The notes: generated by a model from the sequence alone, not told the origin. Shown: positions 7,761 to 29,625, counted from the first letter of the stretch. The stretch is 64,000 nucleotides of DNA from a virus (IMGVR_UViG_3300047560_001714:123936-187935); one strand, 5' to 3'. Made by a program: numbers and translations.

Positions 7761-10091
7761 ATGACTAATATATGGAATATTCGTTCTGGTGAAAATATTG
7801 GAACAATAAATGAACGAACCCCGGTGGATATACGATTGCCAATTTCGTTCGACCAGTTGCCATCCGATTTGACATTCACAGTCATTTCTGGTAGTCTTCC
7901 TGGTGGGTTATACATAAAAAACCAACATATAATTGGTATGGCATATGAGGTGGCAAGAAATACAAACTTTACATTTTGTATAAGAGCATCATCCAGTGCT
8001 GGTATTTCAGATAGAACTATGGTTATAACTATAGCTGGCCCTGACACACCAGAATTTATCACATTGGCTGGGAATCAGATTAGAAATCTCGATATAGGGC
8101 CAAACCACCAATTATTTGTTGTATCTAACACGTATGTCGATTATCAACTAGAGGCATTTGACCCAGATACAGCGGCTGGCCAAAAATTAAGCTATTTTAT
8201 ACCAAGTAAAGACGGTGAATTGCCACCTGGATTATCATTGACAGAAGATGGTCGAATATATGGCATTATAAAACCAGTCTTAACCTTAAAAAAATCTGAT
8301 GGAAACGGTGCATTTGATACTGCCCAATTTGATGATACGCCATACGACTTTGGTATAAGATCATCAAATGGATATGACTCATATTATTATGAATCAAAAT
8401 CTTATGACTTTTCATTACCGGCAGCACGTCCACAATCTCTCAACCGTAACTACGAGTTTTATGTAACAGTTACTGACGGTGATTCATATGTCCGACGCAA
8501 GTTTGCAATATATGTTGTTGGTGATGATTACTTCCGCGCCGATAGTACAAGTTTCATTAATGATACAGGATTCTTTACCGCAGACGTTACATATATGTCT
8601 GCACCAATATGGCTTACAAAATCCAATTTGGGTGAGTTTAGAGCAAATAATTATGTATTAGTTAAGTTAGATACCTATGATGTAAGTCAGGTAATCTATA
8701 GTATAGATAATATTAATCATTTACCACCAGGTATGAAATTTGATCCAATTACCGGTGATATATTTGGTAAAATCCCATATCAACCAGCTATTACCAAAAC
8801 ATATACGTTTACAATCACAGCCACACGGTATGGTAATAAGGATGAAACAGCAGAATCTTCTAGAACATTTAGCATGTCCGTGTTTGGTGAACTGGATAGT
8901 GTGTTATCATGGGTGACTGATAGTAATTTAGGTTCATTGGATGCAAATTCTCCATCTGTATTAAAAGTATCGGCGGTATGTAGTCTACCATCATCAGTAT
9001 TAATTTATCACATTACAAGCGGGTCACTACCACCTGGGTTAACCCTTGATGTAAATGGGGAAATTGTTGGAAATATTCAACAATTTAAAGATGTTTCTAA
9101 AAATATCAATGGTATTCTAGCATTTGATACTAACGATACCACTTTCGATAACAATACAACTATATTTGACCGAGTATTCACATTTACAGTCCAAGTACGT
9201 GACCAATATAGTATAAACACTAACACTAAACAATTCACATTGAGTGTTAATACCCCAGACAAAATTCCATATAGTAATATTAAAGTAATGCCACTGTTGA
9301 AACCTGCGCATCGTGCTATGTGGAAAGATTTTATTAATGACACAACCATCTTTCCACCTGATAGTATTTACCGCACAAATGACCAAACTTTTGGGATTCA
9401 AACCAACATGGAAATGACCATATATGCCGGAATCAATACAACGGATGCCGCCGCATATATTAGTGCAATGGGTTTAAATCATAAAAAGAAAAGATTTAAC
9501 TTCGGTAGTATAAAAAAGGCGTTGGCCAGAGAAACATACACTAGTGATGTGATATATGAAGTAATATACATCGAAATGATAGATCCATATGAACCAAATG
9601 GTAAAAAATTAGCACCAAGTTTATCAAAGTTAGGAAAAATGTCACCACCGATTACTGTTGATGAAAGTGTTGATTTTTGGGATATGCCTTTAAACCAATT
9701 AGATGCATCTCAAAATAGACCACATAATATAATAACGGTTGACAGCACCGGATATAAAAGTTCGAACTCGCAGCCATCAACTTATTATCCAAACAGCATT
9801 TCTAATTGGCGTAAAAGAATTCGTGCGATCGGTTCAACTGATAGAAAATTCTTACCATTATGGATGAGAACAATTCAATCTGAAACAAAACTAGAACTTG
9901 GATTTACTTTAGCGATACCACTCTGTTTTTGTAAACCAGGTACCGCTGATGACATATTATTAAATATAAAACACAGTTCATTTGATTTTAAACAAATTGA
10001 TTACACCATTGACAGATATATAATTGATGCGGTCGATGGATATACCAATGATAAATATTTGGTATTTAGAAACGATAGGATAACAATATGA
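7761..10091 (+). CDS. Virion structural protein with multiple putative Ig (He_PIG-like) domains
   Basis: Repeated GSLP(G/P)GL.L...G.I.G modules ending in FT(F/I)T(V/I) strands; tail-gene context. Confidence 0.7.
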   Translation: MTNIWNIRSGENIGTINERTPVDIRLPISFDQLPSDLTFTVISGSLPGGLYIKNQHIIGMAYEVARNTNFTFCIRASSSAGISDRTMVITIAGPDTPEFITLAGNQIRNLDIGPNHQLFVVSNTYVDYQLEAFDPDTAAGQKLSYFIPSKDGELPPGLSLTEDGRIYGIIKPVLTLKKSDGNGAFDTAQFDDTPYDFGIRSSNGYDSYYYESKSYDFSLPAARPQSLNRNYEFYVTVTDGDSYVRRKFAIYVVGDDYFRADSTSFINDTGFFTADVTYMSAPIWLTKSNLGEFRANNYVLVKLDTYDVSQVIYSIDNINHLPPGMKFDPITGDIFGKIPYQPAITKTYTFTITATRYGNKDETAESSRTFSMSVFGELDSVLSWVTDSNLGSLDANSPSVLKVSAVCSLPSSVLIYHITSGSLPPGLTLDVNGEIVGNIQQFKDVSKNINGILAFDTNDTTFDNNTTIFDRVFTFTVQVRDQYSINTNTKQFTLSVNTPDKIPYSNIKVMPLLKPAHRAMWKDFINDTTIFPPDSIYRTNDQTFGIQTNMEMTIYAGINTTDAAAYISAMGLNHKKKRFNFGSIKKALARETYTSDVIYEVIYIEMIDPYEPNGKKLAPSLSKLGKMSPPITVDESVDFWDMPLNQLDASQNRPHNIITVDSTGYKSSNSQPSTYYPNSISNWRKRIRAIGSTDRKFLPLWMRTIQSETKLELGFTLAIPLCFCKPGTADDILLNIKHSSFDFKQIDYTIDRYIIDAVDGYTNDKYLVFRNDRITI

Positions 10092-10681
10092 GTAATATAA
10101 ATTATGCAGCAATTGATGTCACATACCCGATTGCGGGACAAGACAATAATAGTCAAGGATTTCGTGATAACTTTGCGGCAATTCAGACCGCATTAAGCGA
10201 GGCGGATGCTGCAATAACAAATTTAGAAGCAAAAGCACTGTTAAACACCGATATTGGTGTTGAAAGTACAGACCCAGCTATTAATGATTTACTTGGTAGT
10301 AGTATTACCAATGGTTCATTTAATCAATTTTATAGTGTAATCAATGCTGACACCATTACAACGTCAGTCAAAGATGTTGATTTGAGAAATGGTTCATTCC
10401 AAACATTTACATATACCGCTAACCGTGCGATTAGATTTAACTATTGGCCATCTGAATTATATGCGGTTGTTAGACTTCACTTAATTAATGAATCTGGTGC
10501 TTCCAGAACCCCAACCTTTTCGACTGTTAATAACGGTACTATTCATATGGAGCAATCATTTCCTGAAGATTTTACTGTCCTCGATGCCACACAAGCTGTT
10601 GTTGAAGCATGGAGTTATGACGGCGGGTTAAATGTATACATGCGTTTATTAGGAGTTTTCGATGCACCCGTTAGTGCATAA
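10088..10681 (+). CDS. Probable virion structural protein
   Basis: ATGA overlap with the previous gene; N-terminal QGFRDNF..I coiled segment. Confidence 0.55.
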   Translation: MSNINYAAIDVTYPIAGQDNNSQGFRDNFAAIQTALSEADAAITNLEAKALLNTDIGVESTDPAINDLLGSSITNGSFNQFYSVINADTITTSVKDVDLRNGSFQTFTYTANRAIRFNYWPSELYAVVRLHLINESGASRTPTFSTVNNGTIHMEQSFPEDFTVLDATQAVVEAWSYDGGLNVYMRLLGVFDAPVSA

Positions 10682-10892
10682 CTTAGGGTCATCGACCACC
10701 GCAGAACTTGAGGCCAAAGCTGCGGATTTATCAAAAAAATATTTTATGACGCATAATACTGAGCTAAAATCTCAAATTGTTGCAATACTTGAAACATATA
10801 AAGACGAAATTGCATCACGTAGACAAGCTGAATTTAATGCATTAATGGCTAAAAGCGAAAAAGGACTTGACAAACTCATTAATATCGATTAA
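10662..10892 (+). CDS. Small helical hypothetical protein
   Basis: 76 aa ORF continuing the operon. Confidence 0.55.
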   Translation: MHPLVHNLGSSTTAELEAKAADLSKKYFMTHNTELKSQIVAILETYKDEIASRRQAEFNALMAKSEKGLDKLINID

Positions 10893-10895
10893 AAT
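10867..10895 (+). promoter_or_regulatory. Sigma70-type promoter TTGACA-N17-TAAAAT
   Basis: TTGACA 10867-10872, 17-nt spacer, TAAAAT 10890-10895; predicted +1 falls at or near ATG 10902. Confidence 0.65.
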
Positions 10896-10901
10896 AGATT
10901 A

Positions 10902-11405
10902 ATGAGATTAGATAACTATAATAACCCAATTTTCAGTGAGCATGATGTTTTTAATATCATGTACGAAGGTAATATCAATGTATTAGCTAATATACAAGTT
11001 GATATTACTGATGAACTAACTAAATTGACAGATATTTCAGATATAGATTTTATAACACCAATCGATCCTGCTATATCTGTCAAATCATTAGACAACTCTC
11101 GACAACAAAGATGGTTAATGCCAGATGAATACAATTCATTTGATGTATACAACTATTGTCTTTCCAAATGCAATACTGAACTAGAAAAAACCAGAGTTAC
11201 CGAGGAATTTGAAGCATTTAAATTATATAAAATGGAAAAGGTCCTCCAATGGCTTAAATATTTCGTTGATTCATGTACGGAACATAAGATTTTTTGGGGT
11301 GTCGGTAGAGGGTCTAGTGTATCTAGTTACATTTTATACCTTTTAGGGGTACATAAAATTAATAGCATTAAATACAAGTTAGACTGGCGAGAATTTTTAC
11401 GTTAA
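10902..11405 (+). CDS. Stand-alone DNA polymerase III alpha (DnaE) palm-fragment homologue
   Basis: GVGRGSSVSSYILYLLGVHKINSIKYKLDWREFLR matches DnaE GPGRGSAAGSLVAY.LGIT.IDP.KYDLLFERFL. The ORF stops before the catalytic aspartates. Confidence 0.7.
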   Translation: MRLDNYNNPIFSEHDVFNIMYEGNINVLANIQVDITDELTKLTDISDIDFITPIDPAISVKSLDNSRQQRWLMPDEYNSFDVYNYCLSKCNTELEKTRVTEEFEAFKLYKMEKVLQWLKYFVDSCTEHKIFWGVGRGSSVSSYILYLLGVHKINSIKYKLDWREFLR

Positions 11406-16780: not shown

Positions 16781-17626
16781 ATGACACATTATTCAACATT
16801 AGGCGTTTCTGAAAACGCATCTCAAGACGAAATTAAACAAGCATATCGTCGATTAGCAAATAAACATCACCCCGACAAAGGCGGCGATCAAGCAACATTC
16901 AAATCAATATCAGCCGCATACGATGTGGTGGGCGACCCCCAAAAACGTGCGGAATATGATAATCATCAACGATATGAACAAATGGGGCATTCATTTGGTG
17001 GAGGTGGCTTTGCACATTTTCATCAAGGAAACTTTCATGATATATTTGGGCACGCATCACCATTTGGTGACATGTTTGGTAGACGCGCCGTTCATAAAAA
17101 CCGAGACTTAAATTTAAACTGTACAATATCACTTGCCGATTCCTTTATCGGTAAGCAATTTGAAACTAGATATAGATTACCAAGTGGTAATGAATCTAGT
17201 GTTGTAATTTCTGTACCAGCAGGGGTTGCAAATGGTGATACAATAAAGTATAATGGTTTGGGTGATGACACTATTAGTAATATCCCTCGCGGAAACTTAA
17301 ATATAACTATTTTAGTACAGCATGACGAAAAATTTGACAGAGTGGGCGATGACCTGTATACTACTGTCGAAATCAACCCAATCGAAGCAATAATTGGATG
17401 TACAAAGCAAGTACAAACAATTACCGGTGCAATGACAAAAGTTGATATTCGTCCAGGTGTTGAAACCGGCACCGAATTTGCAAAACCAGGTGGTGGATTC
17501 AAAAATATCCATACCAACATGCTAGGTAGGTTTGTGGTACTTGTTAAGATTAAAACACCAACTATCACTGACCGAGATTTACTCTCACAACTTAGCGATA
17601 TAAACAATAAACTTAATTCACTTTAA
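16781..17626 (+). CDS. dnaJ: J-domain co-chaperone (DnaJ/CbpA-type, no zinc finger)
   Basis: YSTLGV...[21 protein letters not shown]-rich linker, DnaJ_C-like GDDLY segment. Confidence 0.9.
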
Positions 17627-17642
17627 CAACGAGGTATACAAT

Positions 17643-19910
17643 ATGGTAGAGCCAAGCGCAGAATTTGAAGCAGTACTAGGTGTAGCGTTAGAAACAGCAA
17701 AAGACTTGCATCATGAATACATTACATTAGAGCATGTGATGCATGCAATGTTGTCAAGTGAAGATTTCACTTCATATCTAGTGGGATATGGGTGTAATGT
17801 TAGTACACTAAAATCTAAACTTGTGGCACATTTACAAAATAAATGTGACGACATTATTAGCAAGACACGTGTTGAAACGCCTCGTAAGACACCAGCATTT
17901 GAACGAATGTTAAATAAAGTGTTCACGCAAGTAATCTTTAACAATAGACAAAAAGTCGAAGTTACTGATGCGTTTTTAACTATGTTAGCCGAAAAAAATT
18001 CGTGGGCTGTATATTATGCTAGTGAGGCGGGAATCGATAAAGCAAAATTTGCGGATTATATTCAAACTAATGCAATTCTCGATGCCCCTGTACCATCCGG
18101 TAACGACAAACGGTCAACTAAAGCATTGCAAGCATTCGCAACGAATCTAAACGACGAAGTTAACAAAGGAAAAATCGATCCGGTAATTGGTCGTGCAAAT
18201 GAGCTTGAAAATATTGCGTTAGCGTTGGGCAGACGTAGTAAAAATAATGTTATCCTAGTCGGTGACCCAGGCGTTGGTAAAACTGCGATTGCCGAAGGTT
18301 TGGCACACAATATTGTAAATGATGTGGTACCAGAATTCCTAAAAGGATATACTGTGTACAACTTAGATATTTCTGCAATGTTAGCTGGATCTAAATATCG
18401 TGGTGATTTTGAAGAACGCTTTAAACAAGTTATCAAAGCATTGGATGAAAAAGGTAAAACCGTATTATTCATCGATGAAGCACACATGATTAATGGTGCC
18501 GGTGCTGGGCAAAATTCTGCCAATGATTTGGCAAATATGATGAAACCAGCATTAAGTAAAGGTAACATTAAAGTAATTGCATCGACAACATGGGATGAGT
18601 ATCGTAAACATTTTGAAAAAGATCGTGCATTAATGCGTCGTTTCCAACGAATCACAGTTGATGAACCATCACAAGAAATGACATTCAAGATTCTAAGTGG
18701 TATTAAAAAATACTATGAAAAACATCACGATGTTAAAATTAAAGATTGCGCATTACATGCGGCGATTAAATTATCAGTCAAATACCAAGCTGATAAAAAA
18801 CTCCCAGATAAAGCAATTGACTTAATTGATGTTGCATGTTCACGTTTTAACTTAAAAGTTGCGGATCAGCGTGTTGTTGCTGAACGAGAAATTCAATTTG
18901 AATTGGCAAAAATGGTTAATTTACCAGAAGAGCAAGTTATGGAAACCGAAAGTGCCCATATTGCAACTCTCCAAGAAAAAATTGAAAATGATGTCTTTGG
19001 TCAAGATTTGGCATTGACTGAAATCGTTGACAAAATTATCGTTGCGCAAGCTGGATTAAAACCCGACAACAAACCAATCGGTTCATTTGTATTCATGGGT
19101 CCAACTGGTTGTGGTAAAACTGAAACAGCGAAATCATTAGCACACCACTTAAATGTTAAATTACTTAGATTCGATATGTCTGAGTATCAAGAAAAACATA
19201 GTGTTAGCAAACTATTAGGTGCACCTCCTGGGTATGCTGGTTATGATGATAATGCTGGTGCGTTGATAACACAACTCCAAGAAAATCCAAATGCGGTGTT
19301 ATTACTAGATGAAATTGAAAAATCTCACCCAGATGTATCAACCGTGTTGTTACAAATGATGGATAACGGTTTTATTACTGGTAGTAATGGTAAAAAAGCG
19401 GATTGCAGAAATATTGTAATGATTATGACAACTAATGCTGGCGCTCAATCCGCTGAAAAAAATGCAATCGGATTTGGGTCGCAAGAGAAAGCATATTCGG
19501 ATGCTGATCTAAAAAAATTCTTTACACCAGAGTTTCGTAACCGTTTGGATGGTATTATTACATTCAATAAACTTGGTAAAGAAAGTATGGTTAAAGTGGT
19601 TAATAAATTTATCGATGAAGTCAGAGCACAAGTTAAAGATAAAGGTGTTAAGATTAAATTGACAAAAGATGCCACAGCATGGTTACTTGATAACGGATTT
19701 GATCCAAAAATGGGCGCAAGACCATTACATAGATTGATTGATAAAGAAATCAAGCGTGATTTAGCAAAACTAATGTTGTTTGGCGAATTGCAAAACGGTG
19801 GAACATTAACCGTTGGCGTTGAAAATAATCAACTTTCACTATCAGTTAAACCAAAACTGGTGAAAGAATCACTACTTATAACAGTTGATACTGACGAGGT
19901 TATTATTTAA
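17643..19910 (+). CDS. clpA: ClpA-type Hsp100 AAA+ unfoldase
   Basis: N-domain HEYITLEH, two Walker sets (GDPGVGKT, GPTGCGKT), GSKYRGDFE, GAPPGYAG pore loop, IGF loop, FTPEFRNRLD; no ClpB middle domain. Confidence 0.9.
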   Translation: MVEPSAEFEAVLGVALETAKDLHHEYITLEHVMHAMLSSEDFTSYLVGYGCNVSTLKSKLVAHLQNKCDDIISKTRVETPRKTPAFERMLNKVFTQVIFNNRQKVEVTDAFLTMLAEKNSWAVYYASEAGIDKAKFADYIQTNAILDAPVPSGNDKRSTKALQAFATNLNDEVNKGKIDPVIGRANELENIALALGRRSKNNVILVGDPGVGKTAIAEGLAHNIVNDVVPEFLKGYTVYNLDISAMLAGSKYRGDFEERFKQVIKALDEKGKTVLFIDEAHMINGAGAGQNSANDLANMMKPALSKGNIKVIASTTWDEYRKHFEKDRALMRRFQRITVDEPSQEMTFKILSGIKKYYEKHHDVKIKDCALHAAIKLSVKYQADKKLPDKAIDLIDVACSRFNLKVADQRVVAEREIQFELAKMVNLPEEQVMETESAHIATLQEKIENDVFGQDLALTEIVDKIIVAQAGLKPDNKPIGSFVFMGPTGCGKTETAKSLAHHLNVKLLRFDMSEYQEKHSVSKLLGAPPGYAGYDDNAGALITQLQENPNAVLLLDEIEKSHPDVSTVLLQMMDNGFITGSNGKKADCRNIVMIMTTNAGAQSAEKNAIGFGSQEKAYSDADLKKFFTPEFRNRLDGIITFNKLGKESMVKVVNKFIDEVRAQVKDKGVKIKLTKDATAWLLDNGFDPKMGARPLHRLIDKEIKRDLAKLMLFGELQNGGTLTVGVENNQLSLSVKPKLVKESLLITVDTDEVII

Positions 19911-19917
19911 CATCTAC

Positions 19918-19954
19918 GCCCGGTTGATAAATACAATATCAACCGGGCTTTTTT
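19918..19954 (+). terminator. Intrinsic terminator with a late-promoter core inside it
   Basis: 12-bp stem GCCCGGTTGATA/TATCAACCGGGC plus T6; ATAAATA at 19927-19933. Confidence 0.7.
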
Positions 19955-20329
19955 ATGCGTATAATAGAATTACTAGAGACTATAAATTTTAAAGACGACG
20001 AATTTGTCAAACCAGTTGGCGACGAGGGAAAACGTGAAATAGCATTTGACGTTCCAGAAGATATTATTTTTTATATGCGGAACGATGATAACGCATTTCG
20101 TAATCATTTATACCCAGTAATCGCTAAATGTTTAGATTTAATTTCATCTAATAAAAAAACACACCCATCTTTATTTGCAGATGCGGTAAAAGAATGTTAT
20201 AATTCTTATATATCTGAATATCCAATCAGAGAACTAGGCAAATCTATCGATAAACAACATCATAAAGATACTTGTATTAAATTACATGATGAAGTTATTG
20301 ATGAAATCAACAATGGAAAATATGATTAA
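19955..20329 (+). CDS. Hypothetical protein, putative internal head protein (MRIIELLE leader)
   Basis: Leader ending in LLE is shared in style with neighbouring genes. Confidence 0.6.
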   Translation: MRIIELLETINFKDDEFVKPVGDEGKREIAFDVPEDIIFYMRNDDNAFRNHLYPVIAKCLDLISSNKKTHPSLFADAVKECYNSYISEYPIRELGKSIDKQHHKDTCIKLHDEVIDEINNGKYD

Positions 20330-20350
20330 CACTACACAACAGGTACACAC

Positions 20351-20980
20351 ATGGGCGGACACGCTATTCCAAATACATCACCAATCAAAAAAGATGATTT
20401 CAATGCTATAATTGAACAATTATCAACGTATCTACCAAATGGACTACAAATTTTTCCATTTGGTAGTGCTGGTAAAAAAATAATAAGCAATGACCTAGAT
20501 CTATTCATAGATAATCATCAACTAGAGAAAATATTCGACTGCGATAATCCTAAAAAACACCTACAACAATATTTTATTAATCAAGGCCTAACATCGTCTA
20601 GGTCAGGTATTGCTGTACACGTTGGTATACCATTTGACAATACAACAATTCAAGTTGATTTAATTGCGGTTGATTATCCAATGATTATACAGCAATTACA
20701 TGACCATACATATGACGATGATACCGTATCTGGAAAAACTATCATCAGTATGTGGTGTGATTTGGCTAGAATGTCATCTCCATCTTTATTATTCAGCCCA
20801 TATACTGGATTGTTTATTAGAGATACCAGAGAATTTATCACAGCTGATAAAAACACGATCGCAAAATTTATTATTGGCCAACACGCCTCTGGTGATGATT
20901 TACGCTCGCCCTCACGAATACTAAAAGCAGTTAAAAACCAAGACGCAATTAGTGAACTAACAAATAAGTATAATCTATGA
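20351..20980 (+). CDS. Pol-beta-superfamily nucleotidyltransferase-like protein
   Basis: GSAGKKIISNDLDL (GS...DxD) plus QVDL as the third acidic residue. Confidence 0.65.
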   Translation: MGGHAIPNTSPIKKDDFNAIIEQLSTYLPNGLQIFPFGSAGKKIISNDLDLFIDNHQLEKIFDCDNPKKHLQQYFINQGLTSSRSGIAVHVGIPFDNTTIQVDLIAVDYPMIIQQLHDHTYDDDTVSGKTIISMWCDLARMSSPSLLFSPYTGLFIRDTREFITADKNTIAKFIIGQHASGDDLRSPSRILKAVKNQDAISELTNKYNL

Positions 20981-22017
20981 AAAAACTTGGCAGAGTATTT
21001 AATCACGTAGAAGATTTAACCTTTTTCTACGGGTCGGCGGGTGCGCGTGAAGCACTACAACATTTAACTGAAATTTGTGAATCACCACACCAACTTAGAA
21101 TGAAATGGGACGGTGGATGCCAAGTATATTGGGGCAGAGACGACAATAACAACTTTGTTATGGCTAGTCACAATAGTTGGGCCAGAGGAGTTGCCGCATA
21201 TACCGCTGAAGATATGGAAACCTTTATTGCTGATAACAGTGGCACTAAATCAGAACAACGTGATGCGTTTGCAAAGCAATATTCGCAACTATTTGGCATT
21301 CTTGAACAAGTTACCCCATTGCAAAGTGGATTTTATTACGCAGATGTATTATTTTACGAAAAACAGCTGCAGAGTAACTCGTATGATCTATATCCAAACT
21401 CAAAAACTGGATATCATATCAAAAAAAACACAACTATTGGGCAAATAATACCAGAATTGCAAGCATTGATGGTGTGTCATGGGTTTTTTGACGAATTTGG
21501 CGAACCTGATTCAGCACAACAGCCTATAAGTTTTGAATATTCAAAACCACCAATTGTTATTTTACCAGCCTATTACAACAAAACAGTACCATTTGTTAAT
21601 TTTCATGCACTCGACCATCTTATTAATATCAGTGATAAGGTAATTGATGAATTTCTGCAACCAATTGCTGGTGTAAGTGCATTTAAAGATTATTTGTATC
21701 AATATTCAAACTATAAAGCAAAAAGATATGAACTTGATACCCTTGGTCAAGATTTTGAACAATGGGTTTCAACAAGTAAACTTAGTTCTAACCAAAAATC
21801 TAAGATATTGGCTAGAAACTCTGAAACCAATGGTGCATCTATACTATTCAATGTTGTAAATCAGATACGAATGTTAAAAAATACAATAATTGACCAGTTA
21901 GAAACCACAATTGGTGATATTAAAGTAACTAATCCAGAAGGATGGGTTAGATATGCAGACACCACTAAACAATTTGGAAATATTAAACTAGTACCGAGGC
22001 ACACATGGCAACCATAG
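20977..22017 (+). CDS. RNA-ligase/capping-like covalent nucleotidyltransferase (DUF6267-like)
   Basis: Motif I KWDG, motif IV EGWV, motif V KLVPR. Confidence 0.6.
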   Translation: MKKLGRVFNHVEDLTFFYGSAGAREALQHLTEICESPHQLRMKWDGGCQVYWGRDDNNNFVMASHNSWARGVAAYTAEDMETFIADNSGTKSEQRDAFAKQYSQLFGILEQVTPLQSGFYYADVLFYEKQLQSNSYDLYPNSKTGYHIKKNTTIGQIIPELQALMVCHGFFDEFGEPDSAQQPISFEYSKPPIVILPAYYNKTVPFVNFHALDHLINISDKVIDEFLQPIAGVSAFKDYLYQYSNYKAKRYELDTLGQDFEQWVSTSKLSSNQKSKILARNSETNGASILFNVVNQIRMLKNTIIDQLETTIGDIKVTNPEGWVRYADTTKQFGNIKLVPRHTWQP

Positions 22018-22547
22018 GAATTAATTTTGGCAGATTTAACCCACCACACATTGGTCACATTAAAATGTGGGAATCTTTAATAAATGATAACGATTTTGCA
22101 TATATTGGACATAACCCAAACACAGTAAACAGTGATAACCCATTACCAGCAGATGAAAAAGAAACAGTAATTAAGACATTATGTCCAATAATTAAACAAC
22201 TTTACCAATCTAGTACGTTATTGACATTAGCATCACAAGCATATAGCGATACGAAGTTACTTAACGAACCATTGGAACTAAATGTGTATTCAGATGAAGA
22301 CTGGTTGATTACTGCTATTAGGTTATACAACAATAATGAAAATATGCATGGATATTTTAAATTTGACACTATCAATCAAGTTAAAACTGAACGAATTACG
22401 TCATCGACCGCTGTTAAGGAAGCAGTAACTAATGATGATAGAGAAGCATTTACATTCGCATCAGGATTTGATGCAGATACGCTAATTCAGATAAATACCA
22501 AAGGCATTAAGTTCTTTGACCTAGTGAGAGAACATATGAAAACTTAG
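22005..22547 (+). CDS. HIGH-motif cytidylyl/adenylyltransferase (NadD/CoaD-like fold)
   Basis: FGRFNPPHIGH and ITSSTAVK (ISST-type motif). Confidence 0.8.
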   Translation: MATIGINFGRFNPPHIGHIKMWESLINDNDFAYIGHNPNTVNSDNPLPADEKETVIKTLCPIIKQLYQSSTLLTLASQAYSDTKLLNEPLELNVYSDEDWLITAIRLYNNNENMHGYFKFDTINQVKTERITSSTAVKEAVTNDDREAFTFASGFDADTLIQINTKGIKFFDLVREHMKT

Positions 22548-22555
22548 GATATTTA

Positions 22556-23233
22556 ATGAAGTTACGTGAATTATTTAACAATGAAGTACTTGACGAGATG
22601 TCAATGCTCATTGGACCAGTGTCTGATTCAAAGTTGTATGACCCAGTATCAAATCATACAATTTATAAAACATATAAATCAAAAGCAGACATTATTGGTA
22701 AACTCAATAATAATATTACATTATACTATTGCACACGCGGTGGCCGCAATGCATACATGGCTGTTTATAGTGAAGGGAAACCTAACGATGAACAAATAGC
22801 TTATTTAATGGAATATTCCCGCGATACAAACCCACCTATTGGTCCACACGCCGTACAAAAATGGTTGTGGACCAATCCTAAATATCGTAATCTAATCGGT
22901 GATCTACCTACCAAGATATTCTTTGAATTAATTGACGATTATCATACCGTTACCGCCGATTTAGAACAAACCCCCGCTGGCCGTGATTTTTGGATGCGCA
23001 AAATAAAGCAAGCATTTGGTCGTGGATTAAATGTGTATTACGTCGATTTTGAAAAAAATGATTTAATACAATTGCGAACCCCTGCTGACATGAACCGAAT
23101 AAACTTTACGCATGGCGTATGGACCCCAGCTGAATCATCTCTCGATAAAGTTTTTGCAATCTCAACTAAAAAACTCACTAAACCAAAGTTCGCACCAACT
23201 AAACCAGCAAACCCGTTAGGAATAAAATTATGA
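22556..23233 (+). CDS. GNAT-like acetyltransferase with (L)xE leader
   Basis: WTNPKYRNLIG (motif A-like) and TADLEQTPAGRDFW (motif B-like); leader MKLRELFNNEVLDE. Confidence 0.5.
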   Translation: MKLRELFNNEVLDEMSMLIGPVSDSKLYDPVSNHTIYKTYKSKADIIGKLNNNITLYYCTRGGRNAYMAVYSEGKPNDEQIAYLMEYSRDTNPPIGPHAVQKWLWTNPKYRNLIGDLPTKIFFELIDDYHTVTADLEQTPAGRDFWMRKIKQAFGRGLNVYYVDFEKNDLIQLRTPADMNRINFTHGVWTPAESSLDKVFAISTKKLTKPKFAPTKPANPLGIKL

Positions 23234-24027
23234 GAGCAAGAGAATTTATATTCGAAGCAGCAATCCATGATGCTCCACCAAATGCCGTTAGTCAAGAAGA
23301 AAAACACCGATTGGCACCAAATGGACAACCAAGTAACTTGAACCCAGTTCAATATGTTCAAGTTAGAACACCTGCCTTCAAATCATGGTTCGGTAACTGG
23401 GAATCGAGTAAAACATGCAGTAAAATCCTAGATGAAAATGGTGAACCACAGGTAATGTATCACGGAACATCAGCTGATATTGCCGAATTCTCAAGTGAGT
23501 TTCTTGGTACAGGAGTGGATCAATATGGCTCTGGTTTTTATTTTACTAGTGCAAAACACACAGCATCTGGATATGCAAATGAAACTGGTGCAGTATACCC
23601 CACTTTTTTAAATGTTAGAAAACCATTACTGAATACAAAACTTGGTAGATTATCATACACACAAATTCAAAGTATTATAATGCTTTCACCAGATTTAGAT
23701 GATTCACTTGCCAATTACGGTGATGTAAAGTATGAAGGCAAACATAAAGTAATGCGTGAAGCAATCATGGCGCATTTTGAATATCAAGATGGATCGACCA
23801 CTATATTAGAAACATTACACGCATTAGGCAATGACTTTTTCAAAAATAGTGCCAGTGCGTTTTTACAAGCAATCAAACAAGTATTAAAATATGACGGGGT
23901 TATGGTCAAATTCGACAATGAAATATTTGTGGTTGCATTTGAATCAAATCAAATTAAATCTGCAATTGGTAACACTGGTGGATTTAAACGCAAGGTAAAT
24001 ACCATGACCAGCGAGGAATCACAATGA
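23230..24027 (+). CDS. ADP-ribosyltransferase-like protein (ART-PolyVal/MuF-type)
   Basis: FKSWFGNWE..SKILDENGEPQVMYHGT, GFYFT, YDGV...EIFVVAF..NQIKS; leader MRAREFIFE. Confidence 0.7.
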   Translation: MRAREFIFEAAIHDAPPNAVSQEEKHRLAPNGQPSNLNPVQYVQVRTPAFKSWFGNWESSKTCSKILDENGEPQVMYHGTSADIAEFSSEFLGTGVDQYGSGFYFTSAKHTASGYANETGAVYPTFLNVRKPLLNTKLGRLSYTQIQSIIMLSPDLDDSLANYGDVKYEGKHKVMREAIMAHFEYQDGSTTILETLHALGNDFFKNSASAFLQAIKQVLKYDGVMVKFDNEIFVVAFESNQIKSAIGNTGGFKRKVNTMTSEESQ

Positions 24028-25649
24028 GAGATATATTAAATAAACTTCAATCCATTGATGATATAGAAATGGACGAGGCCCCGCTTCCTCCAGAATGGGA
24101 TAAAGAAGTTTTCAAACCTGATTGGAACAAAGGTGTAAAGACACCAAATCAAGTATACAAAGAACGAATTAAGTATGCAGTAGAAAGAGCACAGAAACTA
24201 GGTAAAGGTTCATCGAGAACTGCGTTTGACATTGAATACGAAGGACGAGCAACCGTGCTTAAAGTCGCACATAATGCAAAAGGTATGGCGCAAAATGCCG
24301 CAGAAGCATCTGTGCTAAATGATGGATATATTGAGAGTATCGGAATTGTTATACCGCTAATTGACTACGATGAAGAACACAACCCACCAGTATGGATACA
24401 CACTGAAAAAGCAACCAAAGCAACACAGAAACAACTTTGCAGCATCATGAAATGCGGTACTCTTGAAAATTTGATTACGCTTGTTAAAATCAATGTTGGG
24501 GAACTTATGTATAGCTATACCCGAACACTAGATGAAATTCGCCAGCAATATAAATTATCAGACGACGATGTTGAAACATTGGAAGAATATGTCAATCTGG
24601 TGTCAGATTTATCAACTGGTAAAAAAGATCTTTTACTAGCAGATTTTACATTACCTGGTAACTGGGGGTTATACAATGGTAATCCGGTTATTGTTGACGT
24701 TGGCTTTACCACTGGTGTACGCCAGGCGCATTACTTCCGTGAAAATAGAGATAATAAAATGAGAGATATATTAGACAAATTAGAAAAAATTCAACTAACT
24801 GAAAGTATTCAATTAGATGAAAAATCAGTATCAAAGAACCAACAACAATTTATGGGTATGGTTCACGCTGCACAAAAAGGTGAAAAACCTGCGAGTAAAG
24901 AAGTTGCAAAAGTCGCTAAATCAATGAAGAAAAAAGATGTAACAGACTTTGCAAAAACTAAACACAAAGGTTTACCAACCAAAGTCGAAACAACAAAACA
25001 CATTCCAGATGAAGATGAAATGGCTGATGAAGAATTGTCAATGTTTTCAAGACATAACGTTGGTACACGTCGCGGTAGAGGGCAAGGGGATAACCCTTGG
25101 AATAAACTGCATAAACATGGGCGCGGTATGAAAGGTCGTACTAGAAAAGATGTAAAAGAGGAAGACGTTTCAGAAGAATGCGCAGCTGTTGGTACTATTA
25201 CTAAACAAAATACAACAAAAGATGTTAATAAAAAAACACCACAAAAAAACTTAGATGCATTCAATTTAGAAGAAGCATTAATTGATATGTATAACTCTTT
25301 GATGGAAGGTGGTATTCATCGCTTGTCAAAAGAAGCACAGAATAGTATAAAAGGTGCGGTAACAACACCAGACGCAAATAACAATGCCGGGGATGCATAT
25401 AAATCATACCGGTTTGGATTAGCATTGGCTGGTGCGCCAGACTATCCAACAAAAGCAGTGAATGATATTGGCGGTGATCCTTTGTTAACAACTTATACCG
25501 ATGAAGAAATGAAAATGGTTCAATATGCTGGAAAACAAGTTGGGGTTGGACAAATCAAACGCCTTACATCAAATAGAAGTAAAGAACGCGATGATACTAA
25601 CACACAAAGTGCAATATCACCAGCAAAGAAAAATAAGTATGGTGTATAA
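24024..25649 (+). CDS. Fusion: N-terminal protein-kinase-like domain plus C-terminal charged internal-protein region (DUF3008-like segment)
   Basis: LGKGSSR, VLK, QNAAE, LADFTLPGN, VDVG. A second MRDIL start at 24759 is followed by KNQQQFMGMVHAAQKGEKPASKEVAKVAKSM. Confidence 0.6.
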   Translation: MRDILNKLQSIDDIEMDEAPLPPEWDKEVFKPDWNKGVKTPNQVYKERIKYAVERAQKLGKGSSRTAFDIEYEGRATVLKVAHNAKGMAQNAAEASVLNDGYIESIGIVIPLIDYDEEHNPPVWIHTEKATKATQKQLCSIMKCGTLENLITLVKINVGELMYSYTRTLDEIRQQYKLSDDDVETLEEYVNLVSDLSTGKKDLLLADFTLPGNWGLYNGNPVIVDVGFTTGVRQAHYFRENRDNKMRDILDKLEKIQLTESIQLDEKSVSKNQQQFMGMVHAAQKGEKPASKEVAKVAKSMKKKDVTDFAKTKHKGLPTKVETTKHIPDEDEMADEELSMFSRHNVGTRRGRGQGDNPWNKLHKHGRGMKGRTRKDVKEEDVSEECAAVGTITKQNTTKDVNKKTPQKNLDAFNLEEALIDMYNSLMEGGIHRLSKEAQNSIKGAVTTPDANNNAGDAYKSYRFGLALAGAPDYPTKAVNDIGGDPLLTTYTDEEMKMVQYAGKQVGVGQIKRLTSNRSKERDDTNTQSAISPAKKNKYGV

Positions 25650-25946
25650 ATGAGACAAATAAGAATAACTACTGCTGACTTACTACCAGCCGAAGATAAC
25701 GATTGCTATTTGTCACCAGATGATCCAATCCATGAACTTAAAAAAGCAAGTATGTTAGGTGGGTTAGGAAGTGCAGATGCATTGGCAAAATACGATAATT
25801 CAAGTTTACCAACTATTGTTGGTAATAACAATGCACAAATTATGCGTGAACAAAATATAAAACCAGGTACAGAAGAATGGTTTAAACTTTGGTTCTCGAA
25901 ACCTAACTTAACTGGAAGTACAGATGAAAATAGCAGAAATTATTAA
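25650..25946 (+). CDS. Hypothetical protein
   Basis: 98 aa, abuts the upstream stop; IKPGTEEWFKLWF motif. Confidence 0.55.
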   Translation: MRQIRITTADLLPAEDNDCYLSPDDPIHELKKASMLGGLGSADALAKYDNSSLPTIVGNNNAQIMREQNIKPGTEEWFKLWFSKPNLTGSTDENSRNY

Positions 25947-26112
25947 AGAAACCGCAACCACGGGTGCAACCTCATCATCTGATGTTAGCATCGGTAATGC
26001 AACTTACCCAAATAAAAAAGCCTCACGTAAAGGAAAAAACCCAGATGGTACAAAAAAGAATGCTATTGATAGCAACGTTAACCTATTCACTGGGGAATGC
26101 CTTAAACGATGA
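25924..26112 (+). CDS. Small putative internal head protein (MKIAEIIKE leader)
   Basis: Leader ending in IKE; basic remainder. Confidence 0.5.
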   Translation: MKIAEIIKETATTGATSSSDVSIGNATYPNKKASRKGKNPDGTKKNAIDSNVNLFTGECLKR

Positions 26113-26118
26113 TAAATA
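26112..26118 (+). promoter_or_regulatory. T4-like late promoter core ATAAATA
   Basis: About 20 nt upstream of ATG 26138, which has a GGAG SD. Confidence 0.55.
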
Positions 26119-26137
26119 CTAGATACTGGAGTTAATT

Positions 26138-27214
26138 ATGACAACTAAACGAAATACCACTCAGTCATTATCTGAGTTTGCGCCACCTGCGGTGGTTGAA
26201 CCACAAGCTGTATCAACACTACCTGATGGTGGAACTGATAAAGAGGGTGCAATGGCGAAAGCTGATCTTTTTAAATTATCGAATTACAGTTATCGATTAT
26301 TTAAAAAAATTGAAGACAACGATCAATTAGAATCTTGGGTTCAAGCAAAAATTACCAAAGCTGCTGATTATATTGCATCAGTGTACCACTACTTAGAATA
26401 CGAAATGAAGTTTTCTGAATATGGTCACAAATTAGATAATAGCGATGTACTATCAGAAAATCAAAAAACTGAATTACGAAATAAATTAACTGAAGCACGT
26501 GCGTCAATTAAAGCTCTTAAATTAGCGCAAGCACAAAAAATGGATGAAGCAAAGAATCCAAAAACTGACAAAGCTGATAAAGATTATGATGATGATGGTG
26601 AGATTGAATCTTCAAAAGATGAAGTAATCGGTAGTCGTCGTAAAGCGGCTGGACTTGATGAAACAGTTACCCCTGTTACGAAAACACCAAAGATTGCTGA
26701 TAAAAAAGGCGGCAATACACCAGGTGCCCCTAAGAAAAAAGGCACAGGCGGCGATGAGTTTAAAAAAGCCCTTGAAAAAGAAATGAAAGAAGGTGCGGAA
26801 AAACCTAGTGCAGATCTTTCTAAAAAAGAAAAATCATCAGTTGCAAAAAAAGCACAAAAAGGTGGTGACATTGGTAAACCAGGTAAAAACTTTGATAAAG
26901 TAGCTAAAAAAGCTGGTGGTGGTGAAAAAGGTAAAAAAATTGCTGCCGCTGCAATGTGGAAAAATATCAAAGAAAGTGCTGAAATGGCGTTTGGTGAAGG
27001 CGTATATGAAACTGGTACCGATGAATGCATGATGTCAAAAGAAGCTAAGAAAGAACCAGCTATGAAACATAATGTAATTAGCAAAGGTAATTTTAAAAAA
27101 TTAGAAAAATCAGGCAAAACACCATTTAAAATTGAAGATGCATCTGAGGAAAACGTTGAACAAATCAATGAATCCACCGAACTTTCTACAATCAAAATGT
27201 TGAGTGGTTTATAA
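26138..27214 (+). CDS. K/E-rich putative prohead core/internal protein
   Basis: Highly charged; many (L/I/M)xE sites; C-terminus INESTELSTIKMLSGL. Confidence 0.6.
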   Translation: MTTKRNTTQSLSEFAPPAVVEPQAVSTLPDGGTDKEGAMAKADLFKLSNYSYRLFKKIEDNDQLESWVQAKITKAADYIASVYHYLEYEMKFSEYGHKLDNSDVLSENQKTELRNKLTEARASIKALKLAQAQKMDEAKNPKTDKADKDYDDDGEIESSKDEVIGSRRKAAGLDETVTPVTKTPKIADKKGGNTPGAPKKKGTGGDEFKKALEKEMKEGAEKPSADLSKKEKSSVAKKAQKGGDIGKPGKNFDKVAKKAGGGEKGKKIAAAAMWKNIKESAEMAFGEGVYETGTDECMMSKEAKKEPAMKHNVISKGNFKKLEKSGKTPFKIEDASEENVEQINESTELSTIKMLSGL

Positions 27215-27215
27215 A

Positions 27216-27800
27216 ATGGATATGAAGAAAATTCTTCAAGCGTTATCAGAACCTTCTGTACCCAAAGAGGGTTCTGATTCTATGAAGAAATTTATTGGTA
27301 TCATAAACGAGGGGGCATCACCCCATAAAGTTAGCTTACCAGTTCAAATGGCAATGAATCACTATTCTACACCAGTTGAAAAACCAAAACCAGCCACTCT
27401 TTCATTATTTACAAAATACATAGCTGAAGCTGATGCGGCAATCGTCAAACAAAAGAATGATGAGTATATTGCAAAACGTAACATAACAAATCAGTATGCA
27501 AAATATATCGCTGAACGCGTATTGATGAAAGATTCGATCCCTGGCCATTCCCCTGGATTTACTGGTGGGGTGGGACCTGGTATTCAACCAGCAATGGAGG
27601 AACACGATAATCCCAAAGATGTGGTTAGTATGGATATTCCATTGCTAATACGGTTGCTCGAATACGCGCGGGAAGATGCCCAAACTGATATGGACCTGCA
27701 TAATGTTACGGAAAAATTGATAGAATTAAGTGGCAATGGTGATGTTTTATCGATGCATGAATACGATATAATTGTAAACAATGCTAACAAACGGAAATAA
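27216..27800 (+). CDS. Putative internal head protein
   Basis: MDMKKILQALSE leader; IINE site. Confidence 0.55.
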   Translation: MDMKKILQALSEPSVPKEGSDSMKKFIGIINEGASPHKVSLPVQMAMNHYSTPVEKPKPATLSLFTKYIAEADAAIVKQKNDEYIAKRNITNQYAKYIAERVLMKDSIPGHSPGFTGGVGPGIQPAMEEHDNPKDVVSMDIPLLIRLLEYAREDAQTDMDLHNVTEKLIELSGNGDVLSMHEYDIIVNNANKRK

Positions 27801-27801
27801 T

Positions 27802-29556
27802 ATGAAACAAAATAATATAAATGCCGCCGAGTATGCACAGCAAATGTCAATTTCATCGAATATGGCGAACGCATTGGTTGAGAGTTTTGGATATGAACCA
27901 CAATTAGACGAACTTTCAATGCAAGATCTAGGTGATTTTGGGCGTGGTGCGCTAAGTGGTGCAACCTTTGGATTTAATAAAAATATAGCGGCGGGTGCCA
28001 ATAGTTTATTCAAAGGTACTAAGTATAAAGATGAACTTCAAAAACAAGTACAAGCTGACCGTGAAGCCGAAATGAGAAGTCCAAAAGCATACAATGCTGG
28101 CGACATCGCGGGGGCGGTAGCAATGCCAATTCCTGGCGCAACCGCATTAAAAGGTGCAATGGCAGCTGGAAAACTTGGAAAAACTGCAATGGCTGCATCA
28201 AACCTGGGTAAAGCTGCGACAATTGGTGGTAAAACAGCCGCTATAGGTGGAAAAGCGGCCTACCAAGGCATTGGCTCAATGACCGGTAAAGCTGCCTCGG
28301 ATGCATTATCCGCACACACCCTAGGTGATACCGATAAAATTATGCAATTGCAACAAGAAATCGGGACCACCCCGGATGGGAAATTTGGGCCTAAATCAAA
28401 AGCAAAATTAAAAGCATGGCAAGCGGCAAATAATTTACCAGTTACTGGTGTACCAGATGCAGCTACAATGGACGTCCTTGGTCTTGCCGAGAGTATTGCT
28501 AGAATGGAAAAACGTCTTCAAGAAAGTTTTGCGGAAGGTCTTGGTGATAAAATTATTGGGTGGGGCGCAAAAGCTGCCAAAGATGCGTTTACTAAAGGTA
28601 GTTCTGGGTTTGGTAAAGCAAAACCATTCATTAGAAACGTCCCAAGTAACGCCTCAGTACCAGCAACATCATCAAAAGCCGGTGAATTCATTCCAAAATC
28701 AAATTTACCTGCGACAGCAGCCCAAGCTGCTGAAAAAGACGCAATTGATTCAACCGCTACTGGTTTTAATGTCGCAAAATCATCAAAAGATGGTGAATTC
28801 ATTCCAAAATCAAACTTACCTGCGAAAGCAGCCCAAGCGGGTGAAAAGGATGCAATTGATTCAACCGCTACTGGGTTTAACGTAGCAAAAACACCGCCAA
28901 CCACTGGCGAATATATACCAAGTATGAAAGTCGGTGGAAAAACCGCAAATGTTGATAAAAATATCGCGGATGGTTCATTTAGAGAAATTGAACAAAAAGC
29001 ATTGGGTGATAATAGATTATCATCTGCTGATAAAGTATCAATTAATAAGAACGGTATTAAAGATTGGATTACTAAAAACCCTAAAAAAGCAAGTATGCTA
29101 GGATATCTAGGGTTAATCGCGGCGTCAAATCTTGGCGATAATGACACCCCGCCCGGTATGCCTGGAATGGCTAAATCGGCACCAGGAATGCCCGGAATGG
29201 CTAAATCGGCACCAGGAATGCCCGGAATAGCTAAATCGGAACCAACCGCTCCTGTCTCACCAAAAGTTGACGACTTAGGCGGACCATCTGATATGGATAA
29301 AGTGTTTCCAAAAACTGTAAAAGCTAATCCAAAATCAGCACAACCACATATTAGAAGTAAACCACACGCACCCACACCACCAACTGGTGATCCACAAATA
29401 AAACAATGGCAACGGTTATTGAATGCGAACGGTGCCAACTTAAAAGTCGATGGGAAATATAGTCCAGAGATGCAATCAGCATACGAGAAAATATTCCCAC
29501 AATATCAACGCGAATCAAAAGAGCTAGAACGAATAGTTCAATTATCACGCAGATAA
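27802..29556 (+). CDS. Putative internal/ejection protein with two peptidoglycan-binding-like modules and internal repeats
   Basis: LQQEIGTTPDGKFGPKS...WQAANNLPVTG and WQRLLNANGANLKVDGKY resemble PG_binding_1; G/A-rich helices. Confidence 0.6.
   Translation: MKQNNINAAEYAQQMSISSNMANALVESFGYEPQLDELSMQDLGDFGRGALSGATFGFNKNIAAGANSLFKGTKYKDELQKQVQADREAEMRSPKAYNAGDIAGAVAMPIPGATALKGAMAAGKLGKTAMAASNLGKAATIGGKTAAIGGKAAYQGIGSMTGKAASDALSAHTLGDTDKIMQLQQEIGTTPDGKFGPKSKAKLKAWQAANNLPVTGVPDAATMDVLGLAESIARMEKRLQESFAEGLGDKIIGWGAKAAKDAFTKGSSGFGKAKPFIRNVPSNASVPATSSKAGEFIPKSNLPATAAQAAEKDAIDSTATGFNVAKSSKDGEFIPKSNLPAKAAQAGEKDAIDSTATGFNVAKTPPTTGEYIPSMKVGGKTANVDKNIADGSFREIEQKALGDNRLSSADKVSINKNGIKDWITKNPKKASMLGYLGLIAASNLGDNDTPPGMPGMAKSAPGMPGMAKSAPGMPGIAKSEPTAPVSPKVDDLGGPSDMDKVFPKTVKANPKSAQPHIRSKPHAPTPPTGDPQIKQWQRLLNANGANLKVDGKYSPEMQSAYEKIFPQYQRESKELERIVQLSRR
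28681..28902 (+). repeat. 111-bp (37 aa) tandem duplication
   Basis: GGTGAATTCATTCCAAAATCAAA at 28681 and 28792. Confidence 0.9.
29152..29241 (+). repeat. 30-bp tandem repeat x3 (PGMPG(M/I)AKS(A/E))
   Basis: Visible directly in DNA and protein. Confidence 0.9.
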
Positions 29557-29559
29557 TAC

Positions 29560-29583
29560 AATGGGGTCTATGACCCCATTTTT
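29560..29583 (+). terminator. Intrinsic terminator ending the internal-protein block
   Basis: AATGGGGTC-tat-GACCCCATT plus T run. Confidence 0.7.
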
Positions 29584-29597
29584 AATTCAAAAATAGC

Positions 29598-29625
29598 TTG
29601 ACATCTAACAAATTTTTGATATAAT
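29598..29625 (+). promoter_or_regulatory. Sigma70 promoter with extended -10
   Basis: TTGACA-N16-TATAAT with TGn. Confidence 0.7.

Follow-up and report, generated by a model that had tools for sequence, protein, structure and literature searches.

The final 64 kb of the 187,935-bp IMG/VR contig IMGVR_UViG_3300047560_001714 (contig positions 123936–187935; hereafter the window, the whole stretch of DNA that was analyzed and to which positions refer unless the contig is named) belong to an uncultured T4-type jumbo phage and carry a block of 12 plus-strand open reading frames (ORFs, named here by their first nucleotide) between positions 19955 and 29556, several of which start with a short leader peptide of one family (Table 1). 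Judging from sequence comparisons, we regard it as fairly probable that the block holds late-transcribed genes for head-internal cargo, whose products would be packed into the capsid, cut there, and injected together with the DNA. In the proposed mechanism, a peptide of 9 residues, or a long form of 15–18 residues, would act like the capsid targeting sequence (CTS) of phage T4 and take the protein that it heads into the scaffolding core of the prohead. A head protease of the gp21 type would then cut after the Glu of a hydrophobic-x-Glu motif, precisely where the folded body begins, and multi-module proteins such as the 541-aa product of 24024 would be cut at joints of the same type. The freed proteins, i.e., a kinase-like protein, an ADP-ribosyltransferase (ART) with an H-Y-D active site, a GNAT-like protein, and several small proteins, would remain in the head and exit with the DNA, so that the three enzymes would be at work on host targets ahead of any phage gene expression.

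An earlier note on this DNA had drawn attention to the block and defined its leader as an [LIM]xE motif near the N-terminus. In this loose form the leader is at chance level (within the first 16 residues of 64 of the 251 contig ORFs vs. 6 of 13 block ORFs). A strict pattern, M-[KR]-x(2-3)-[ED]-[FILM]-[FILMVS] at the ORF start, heads 13 of the 251 contig ORFs, while 0.42 are expected from composition and 1000 shuffles gave a mean of 0.52 and a maximum of 4. N-terminal occurrences outnumber internal ones by 14 to 1 on the contig and by 72 to 18 among the 1398 ORFs of the 80 related loci that were compared (family-B polymerase, PolB, 64–75% identical). The strict family comprises five block ORFs (19955, 22556, 23230, 24024, and 25924), the fourth of which has another, internal copy at aa 246. 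This is an enrichment over the remaining contig (Fisher p = 2e-4), and in these five the leader is genuine. The LSE ends that had been counted as leaders in two other ORFs are poorly kept (that of 26138 is present only in a subset of the relatives, and that of 27216 is not conserved although the N-terminus around it is), and four ORFs (20351, 20977, 22005, and 25650) are leaderless. A chance resemblance of AT-rich N-termini, which would fit with a quarter of all ORFs obeying the loose rule, is refuted for the strict family by the 13 cases observed against about 0.5 expected, as well as by conservation across hundreds of homologues, and its probability is next to nil.

From 164 distinct leaders the consensus M-[RK]-[IAL]-[RK]-E-[LFI]-[ILF]-x-E was derived, to which the long form adds x-K-[LI]-[DE]-x-[LI]-x-E. 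The leader is conserved as amino acids and not as DNA, the two copies in 24024 having only 15–16 identical bases. We rejected the idea that the shared N-termini derive from a repeat at the DNA level or from a mobile cassette, as the upstream DNA is unrelated and the codons differ between genes. The same two facts speak against the broader alternative that the leader has some other common role, be it tail, baseplate, or membrane docking or an efficient start of translation. Docking would suit a leader-bearing SLT lytic transglycosylase with a peptidoglycan-binding domain and the peptidoglycan-binding product of 27781, both of which could be tail-tip or periplasmic proteins, but the leader is acidic and amphipathic, which is not the character of a secretion signal, and the motif at its end fits a head protease; we consider this alternative quite improbable. 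Outside the window, the contig has ten further ORFs with the leader (contig 428–2030, 22934–23335, 25959–26516, 54957–56303, 58991–61129, and 64180–65967 among their locations), and they include the SLT transglycosylase together with GP88-family, DUF6321, and amidoligase-like proteins.

The leaders are akin to the propeptides of the internal proteins of T4. In the T4 genome (NC_000866), IPII and IPIII start with M-K-T-Y-Q-E-F-I-A-E and Alt with M-E-L-I-T-E-L-F-D-E, IPI has a related peptide of 19 residues that ends in I-T-E, and the core E-[FL]-[IF]-x-E is common to the T4 peptides and the leaders of this phage. For the loading of foreign proteins into T4 heads, the first ten IPIII residues are enough; gp21 cleaves after L/I-x-E, Alt is also trimmed C-terminally, and the CTS has been proposed as a possible general loading device of T4-like phages (PMC9026906). 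The two systems are alike in having a short N-terminal propeptide with this core that is cut (here predicted) after hydrophobic-x-Glu, unrelated and variable bodies with an ADP-ribosyltransferase among the cargo, and late genes (again predicted here) that are scattered away from the head genes. They differ in that the leader here is one residue shorter than in T4, or of the long form, and in that about 15 tagged genes are found on half a genome vs. a handful in T4. The cargo here also includes kinase-like and GNAT-like proteins, and the ART belongs to the H-Y-D (ART-PolyVal) clade while Alt belongs to the R-S-E clade. Finally, multi-module proteins joined at putative cut-site motifs and a C-terminal tag on two proteins set this phage apart from T4.

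The head genes of relatives are of the T4 type. The gp21 protease family was detected (88–90 bits) in two larger relatives, G002 and G003, whose PolB is 64–66% identical, and the gene order in G003 is T4 portal, a leader-headed 79-aa ORF that occupies the position of gp67, two ORFs, the protease, a scaffold-like protein, and gp23; the protease gene lies on the minus strand of L094 (11720–12355). In the gp23 of G003, L-A-E|S stands eleven residues ahead of the Pfam-matched body, and the capsid protein of phage XacN1 has M-L-A-E|T at the equivalent place. As a side observation, the part of the 62-aa product of 25924 that follows the predicted cut site resembles the capsid maturation site of G003 (9 of 19 residues identical when aligned at the Glu, pairwise E 0.006), and the XacN1 capsid protein has a similar site. 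Gp21-related proteases that cut many head-internal proteins after the Glu of a three-residue motif are also known from phiKZ, 201phi2-1, and SPN3US, jumbo phages whose ejection or inner-body proteins likewise make up a large cargo mass; in contrast to the system described here, those phages use S/A-x-E, have no T4-like ten-residue CTS, and belong to a different lineage.

The joint between leader and body provides the strongest new evidence. It was followed in the family of the kinase-like module of 24024, which has at least 148 relatives. Among the 120 homologues listed, 103 start with the short-form leader and 116 have P-L-P-x-x-W-D at the start of the body, which is directly preceded by [LIVMF]-x-E in 113 of these 116, whatever the length or type of the leader. 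Where the kinase domain stands behind a GNAT, an ART, or another module, hydrophobic-x-E is present at every internal joint (26/26). GNAT-like proteins have it before [MST]-P-x-x-I in 40 of 45 aligned members, and some members start at [MST]-P-x-x-I, without a leader. Structures were predicted with AlphaFold2 for the kinase-like and GNAT-like proteins (pLDDT, the predicted local distance difference test, 86 and 88.6, respectively), and in both models the leader and the joint Glu have pLDDT < 50 and fall outside the fold, so the joint Glu is unlikely to be structural.

These models point to the kinase-like and GNAT-like folds that the earlier note had suggested. For the bilobal kinase fold, 68 PDB matches were obtained (Foldseek, E ≤ 1e-3), and all among the matches listed are APH, Bud32/PRPK, RIO-type, or eukaryotic-type kinases. 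The residues G60, G62, K80, E94, D207, N213, D225, and G227 are fully or almost fully conserved across 34 kinase-like sequences and cover the Gly loop, the beta3 Lys, the helix-C Glu, the catalytic Asp...Asn, and DxG. At the level of the predicted structure, a kinase-like fold with catalytic residues is confirmed for 24024. Viral structural neighbours of this protein are T7-group kinases and uncharacterised proteins of RaK2 and CBB. It shares the protein-kinase-like fold with T7 gp0.7-type kinases, and a role in host takeover is plausible here as well, but gp0.7 is synthesized early, from the DNA that has been injected, and does not travel in the capsid, and sequence identity is only 11–18%. 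The DUF3008 module in the same polyprotein (24822–24990) is 76–78% identical to small ORFs of T4-like cyanophages (S-PM2 p146, S-RIM32), in which hydrophobic-x-E also precedes K-S-V-S-K; DUF3008 was not mentioned in the literature searched, and a comparative paper on cyanophages does not mention internal proteins. A further homologue of the kinase-like module is ORF170 of XacN1 (L098:3974-4621), whose leader-like start ends in F-L-S-E before A-P-L-P, and public virion mass-spectrometry data exist for this phage (ProteomeXchange PXD008065).

The membership of 23230 in ART-PolyVal is confirmed by its sequence (Table 1). Its H-Y-D triad is intact and consists of the invariant H78, the majority residue Y104, and the nearly invariant D222 (strands assigned by eye), and the H-Y-D active site described for the ARTs of polyvalent proteins has the His on strand 1, the Tyr on strand 2, and the Asp on strand 5 (PMC5512222). 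Homologues that are 66–83% identical carry the long leader form in place of the short one of the window protein. For the GNAT-like product of 22556, the best 50 rows of the structural search with VIA-align (pdb_via; Foldseek was also run) are all acetyl-CoA/GNAT-fold domains, with middling Z scores of 6.5–8.2 and a root-mean-square deviation of about 3 Å over 105–123 residues, and G142 is invariant ahead of the helix after strand 4. No acetyltransferase model was matched in a Pfam scan of the 45 members, and the GNAT-like assignment, being made by fold, is moderately supported. Single-sequence and profile searches of the PDB with the GNAT-like, kinase-like, DUF6267, and nucleotidyltransferase (NTase) proteins gave no usable match. 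The enzyme assignments of the earlier note have mostly held up: the ART by Pfam and its H-Y-D residues, the kinase-like protein by fold and catalytic residues, and the GNAT-like protein by fold. As no homologue of the ART or of the GNAT-like protein was found in any of the 80 related loci, both look like variable cargo.

Polyvalent proteins (Iyer et al. 2017, PMC5512222) draw on this repertoire of domains too (ART-PolyVal, GNAT, and others) and are likewise predicted to accompany the DNA, and homologues of the window proteins occur as ART-kinase and GNAT-kinase fusions. Polyvalent proteins combine two to fifteen effector domains in one polypeptide, whereas here only 24024-25649 encodes a multi-module protein and the ART and GNAT-like proteins are single-domain; most domains are encoded singly and bear an address tag of their own. 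In addition, the joints here fit a head protease and not an embedded metallopeptidase.

Expression of the block late in infection, as the earlier note had supposed, would agree with the sequence. The motif ATAAATA occurs 23–43 nt upstream of 23 genes of the contig (1.2 expected), baseplate and fibre genes among them. It stands 28 nt before the ATG of 19955 and again ahead of 26138, and the spacing at both genes matches that at the baseplate and fibre genes. Several of the leader-bearing ORFs outside the window also sit behind such boxes. Read as a T4-type late promoter, the motif would make the block look like a late unit among early and middle genes. No strong sigma70 promoter was found inside the block. 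A perfect TTGACA-16-TATAAT sigma70 promoter with a TG extension is located just past the block terminator (29598–29625) and serves a conserved 84-aa gene and PolB. The bounds that had been given for the block, a terminator with ATAAATA on one side and a closing terminator on the other, were confirmed.

Two similar C-terminal helices that had been noticed in products of the block proved to be real and conserved. The families of 26138 and 27781 share the end peptide S-x-[DE]-L-x-R-x-[LI]-x-x-x-x-G after hydrophobic-x-E, which was found in 64 of the 1398 ORFs of relatives, all from these two families, and is kept in 41 orthologues of 26138. The C-terminal trimming of Alt is a precedent, and suggests that this C-terminal tag may be a removable anchor. 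The LVE of 27781 is a conserved joint as well (L-[IVT]-E|SFGY in 26 distinct contexts); an L-I-E-S-Y-G motif like it is present in S-PM2 p145, which adjoins p146. The products of 26138, 27216, and 27781 are most likely core or ejection proteins, with a second, C-terminal tag that would be removed at a similar site. In a rival explanation, the tagged proteins would enter the prohead and be cut, yet they would be parts of the assembly (core, scaffold, or DNA-condensing proteins) or be expelled before DNA packaging, they would not be injected, and the enzymes, if active at all, would work in the cell that produces the phage. In its favour, 26138 and 27216 are the most conserved part of the block, and their products are charged and rich in cut sites like gp22, gp67, and gp68 of T4, which are fragmented and for the most part lost from the head. 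What makes it unlikely in our view is that the kinase, ART, and GNAT require ATP, NAD+, and acetyl-CoA, which are not supplied by the capsid, that the enzyme cargo varies among relatives as expected of arms-race effectors, and that Alt and IPI of T4 are precedents for injection.

The earlier note had also considered the nucleotidyltransferases of the block as possibly packaged. On this point it is not borne out, as the NTase-like, ligase-like, and NMNAT-like genes (20351, 20977, and 22005) have no leader here. Leaders do occur on their orthologues: those of the DUF6267 protein start with one in L017, L036, and L015, those of the NMNAT-like protein carry one in L036 and L053, and in L015 the NTase is fused behind a leader whose V-L-A-E ends exactly where the window protein starts. 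Because the leader is absent here, packaging of the NTases cannot be claimed for this phage. What the sequence comparisons favour in the original interpretation is a T4-type leader on the GNAT-like, ART, and kinase-like proteins, together with late expression. We read the K-W-D-G of the DUF6267 protein as a probable ligase or capping-type motif I. The NTase-like protein has no Pfam or PDB match, and no family match was obtained for the product of 19955. An in-frame readthrough from 19955 into 20351, which share the same frame, was rejected since relatives have the two genes in different frames.

The recurring gene order in relatives is ClpA, the tagged 124-aa protein, the NTase, the DUF6267 protein, the NMNAT-like protein, the DUF3008 protein, the 98-aa protein, and the small tagged protein, followed by the 26138 family, the 27216 family, the large peptidoglycan-binding protein, the 84-aa protein, and PolB. 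In two loci (L021 and L025, approximately 10001–11180) PolB appears to be interrupted after approximately 130 codons; the inserted 246-aa ORF starts in an H-N-H-like manner and may be a homing endonuclease or an intron. A Megablast search of the block against phage records gave no match, and by PolB the nearest cultured relatives are Sinorhizobium phage Phosso, Agrobacterium phage Atu_ph07, and RaK2-like coliphages (42–46% identity). Besides PolB, the window encodes a clamp loader and a gp9/10-like baseplate protein. The chaperone/Clp set is near-complete, with DnaJ and ClpA in the window (16781–19910) and DnaK, ClpS, and ClpP elsewhere on the contig (46070–47980, 48511–48828, and 94838–95419). 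A 3683-aa ORF (window 1–6300, contig 119184–130235) lies just upstream of the baseplate-like genes and has the same N-terminal motif as these; its last 2079 residues have no Pfam match.

Table 1. Coordinates and properties of the block genes, terminators, and promoter-like box in the window (aa, amino acids).
Feature	Position	Strand	Properties
Hairpin terminator	19918..19948	+	12-bp stem; ends the ClpA gene; ATAAATA in the loop (19927-19933)
Protein, 124 aa	19955..20329	+	Short leader aa 1-8; orthologues with the same leader at the same position in 14 related loci
Pol-beta-type NTase-like protein	20351..20980	+	Leaderless; G38, S39, D48, D50 invariant in orthologues
DUF6267 protein	20977..22017	+	Leaderless; Pfam 37.9 bits vs. 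cut-off 27; invariant K43, W44, D45, G46
NMNAT/cytidylyltransferase-like protein	22005..22547	+	Leaderless; HxGH; Pfam 20.2 bits vs. cut-off 21; NCBIfam far below cut-offs
GNAT-like protein	22556..23233	+	Leader aa 1-14 ending L-D-E before the conserved body
ART-PolyVal ADP-ribosyltransferase	23230..24027	+	Leader aa 1-9; PF18760 1.6e-28, 100.7 bits vs. cut-off 31.2
Three-module polyprotein, 541 aa	24024..25649	+	Leader of the long form, aa 1-18; kinase-like domain, aa 19-245; leader repeated at aa 246-266; predicted cuts after E18 and E260/E266; DUF3008 module; C-terminal module ending NKYGV
Protein, 98 aa	25650..25946	+	No leader; conserved in 32 related loci
Small cargo protein (putative), 62 aa	25924..26112	+	Leader aa 1-9
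Second ATAAATA late-promoter-like box	26112..26118	+	26 nt before the ATG of 26138
Lys/Glu-rich protein, 358 aa	26138..27214	+	Ten hydrophobic-x-E sites; C-terminal tag aa 346-358 behind I-N-E
Conserved protein, 194 aa	27216..27800	+	N-terminus related to the long leader form; two internal Y-I-A-E sites
Protein, 591 aa	27781..29556	+	L-V-E|SFGY joint; Gly/Ala-rich segment; PG_binding_1 1e-14; C-terminal tag aa 579-591
Bidirectional terminator	29560..29580	.	Ends the block

Several points weigh against packaging and injection. The gp21 and gp23 families were not found on the contig of this phage, which is about half a genome (CheckV completeness approximately 51%) and has no head gene; since the same gp21 search matches the relatives, the blank reflects a contig without the head module and not a failure of the tool, and the protease and its specificity are consequently known only from relatives. 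The block lies among replication and chaperone genes, beside ClpA and not beside head genes, three of its enzymes have no leader, the leader motif is short, and the conserved Glu at the start of a domain could serve another role. In the paper on XacN1 and its supplement, ORF170 appears only as a predicted ORF and not among the virion proteins, and a leader of this kind is missing from the chitinase and the lipase that were detected in XacN1 virions. The ART homologue of phage CBB, CBB_455, is listed in the annotation table but mentioned neither in the main text nor in the further supplementary files searched. Furthermore, ClpA is directly 5′ of the block both here and in many relatives, and the contig encodes ClpP, ClpS, DnaK, and DnaJ, which would agree with the leader being a signal by which the Clp/DnaK machinery of the phage recognizes proteins for timed unfolding or degradation, instead of a capsid address. 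Some N-terminal signals recognized by ClpX start with Met-basic-hydrophobic. A degron, however, leaves unexplained the hydrophobic-x-Glu at the start of the body, the same motif at internal fusion joints, the match to the T4 CTS, and the late-promoter boxes, and we give this explanation little credence.

On the whole, this divergent jumbo lineage would have an internal-protein system in the style of T4, with more cargo than T4, more of it enzymatic, polyprotein joints, and a second tag. The earlier note knew of no description of such a packaged set; the internal proteins IPI-III and Alt of T4, the proposal of the CTS as a general loading device (PMC9026906), and the polyvalent proteins (PMC5512222) cover much of it. 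A bolder version, which we put forward tentatively and hold to be somewhat doubtful, is that this freshwater jumbo lineage runs a plug-in addressing system, in which any protein with a nine-residue tag and a hydrophobic-x-Glu joint would be taken into the head, singly or in cleaved polyproteins. This phage would use it to pre-load a kinase, an ART, and an acetyltransferase for takeover or counter-defence upon injection, and the C-terminal tag would anchor two ejection or core proteins. Should the tag function as it does in T4, the injected arsenal of a phage could be read from its genome by a nine-residue signature; this arsenal comprises the proteins that are active ahead of all phage gene expression and are the first to meet host defences. 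The conserved joints suggest a simple route by which phages may gain, lose, and fuse cargo, and the leaders could offer alternative capsid-loading tags for the engineering of T4-type heads. If true, a packaged kinase, an H-Y-D ART, and an acetyltransferase-like enzyme would widen the injected host-modifying repertoire beyond T4 Alt.

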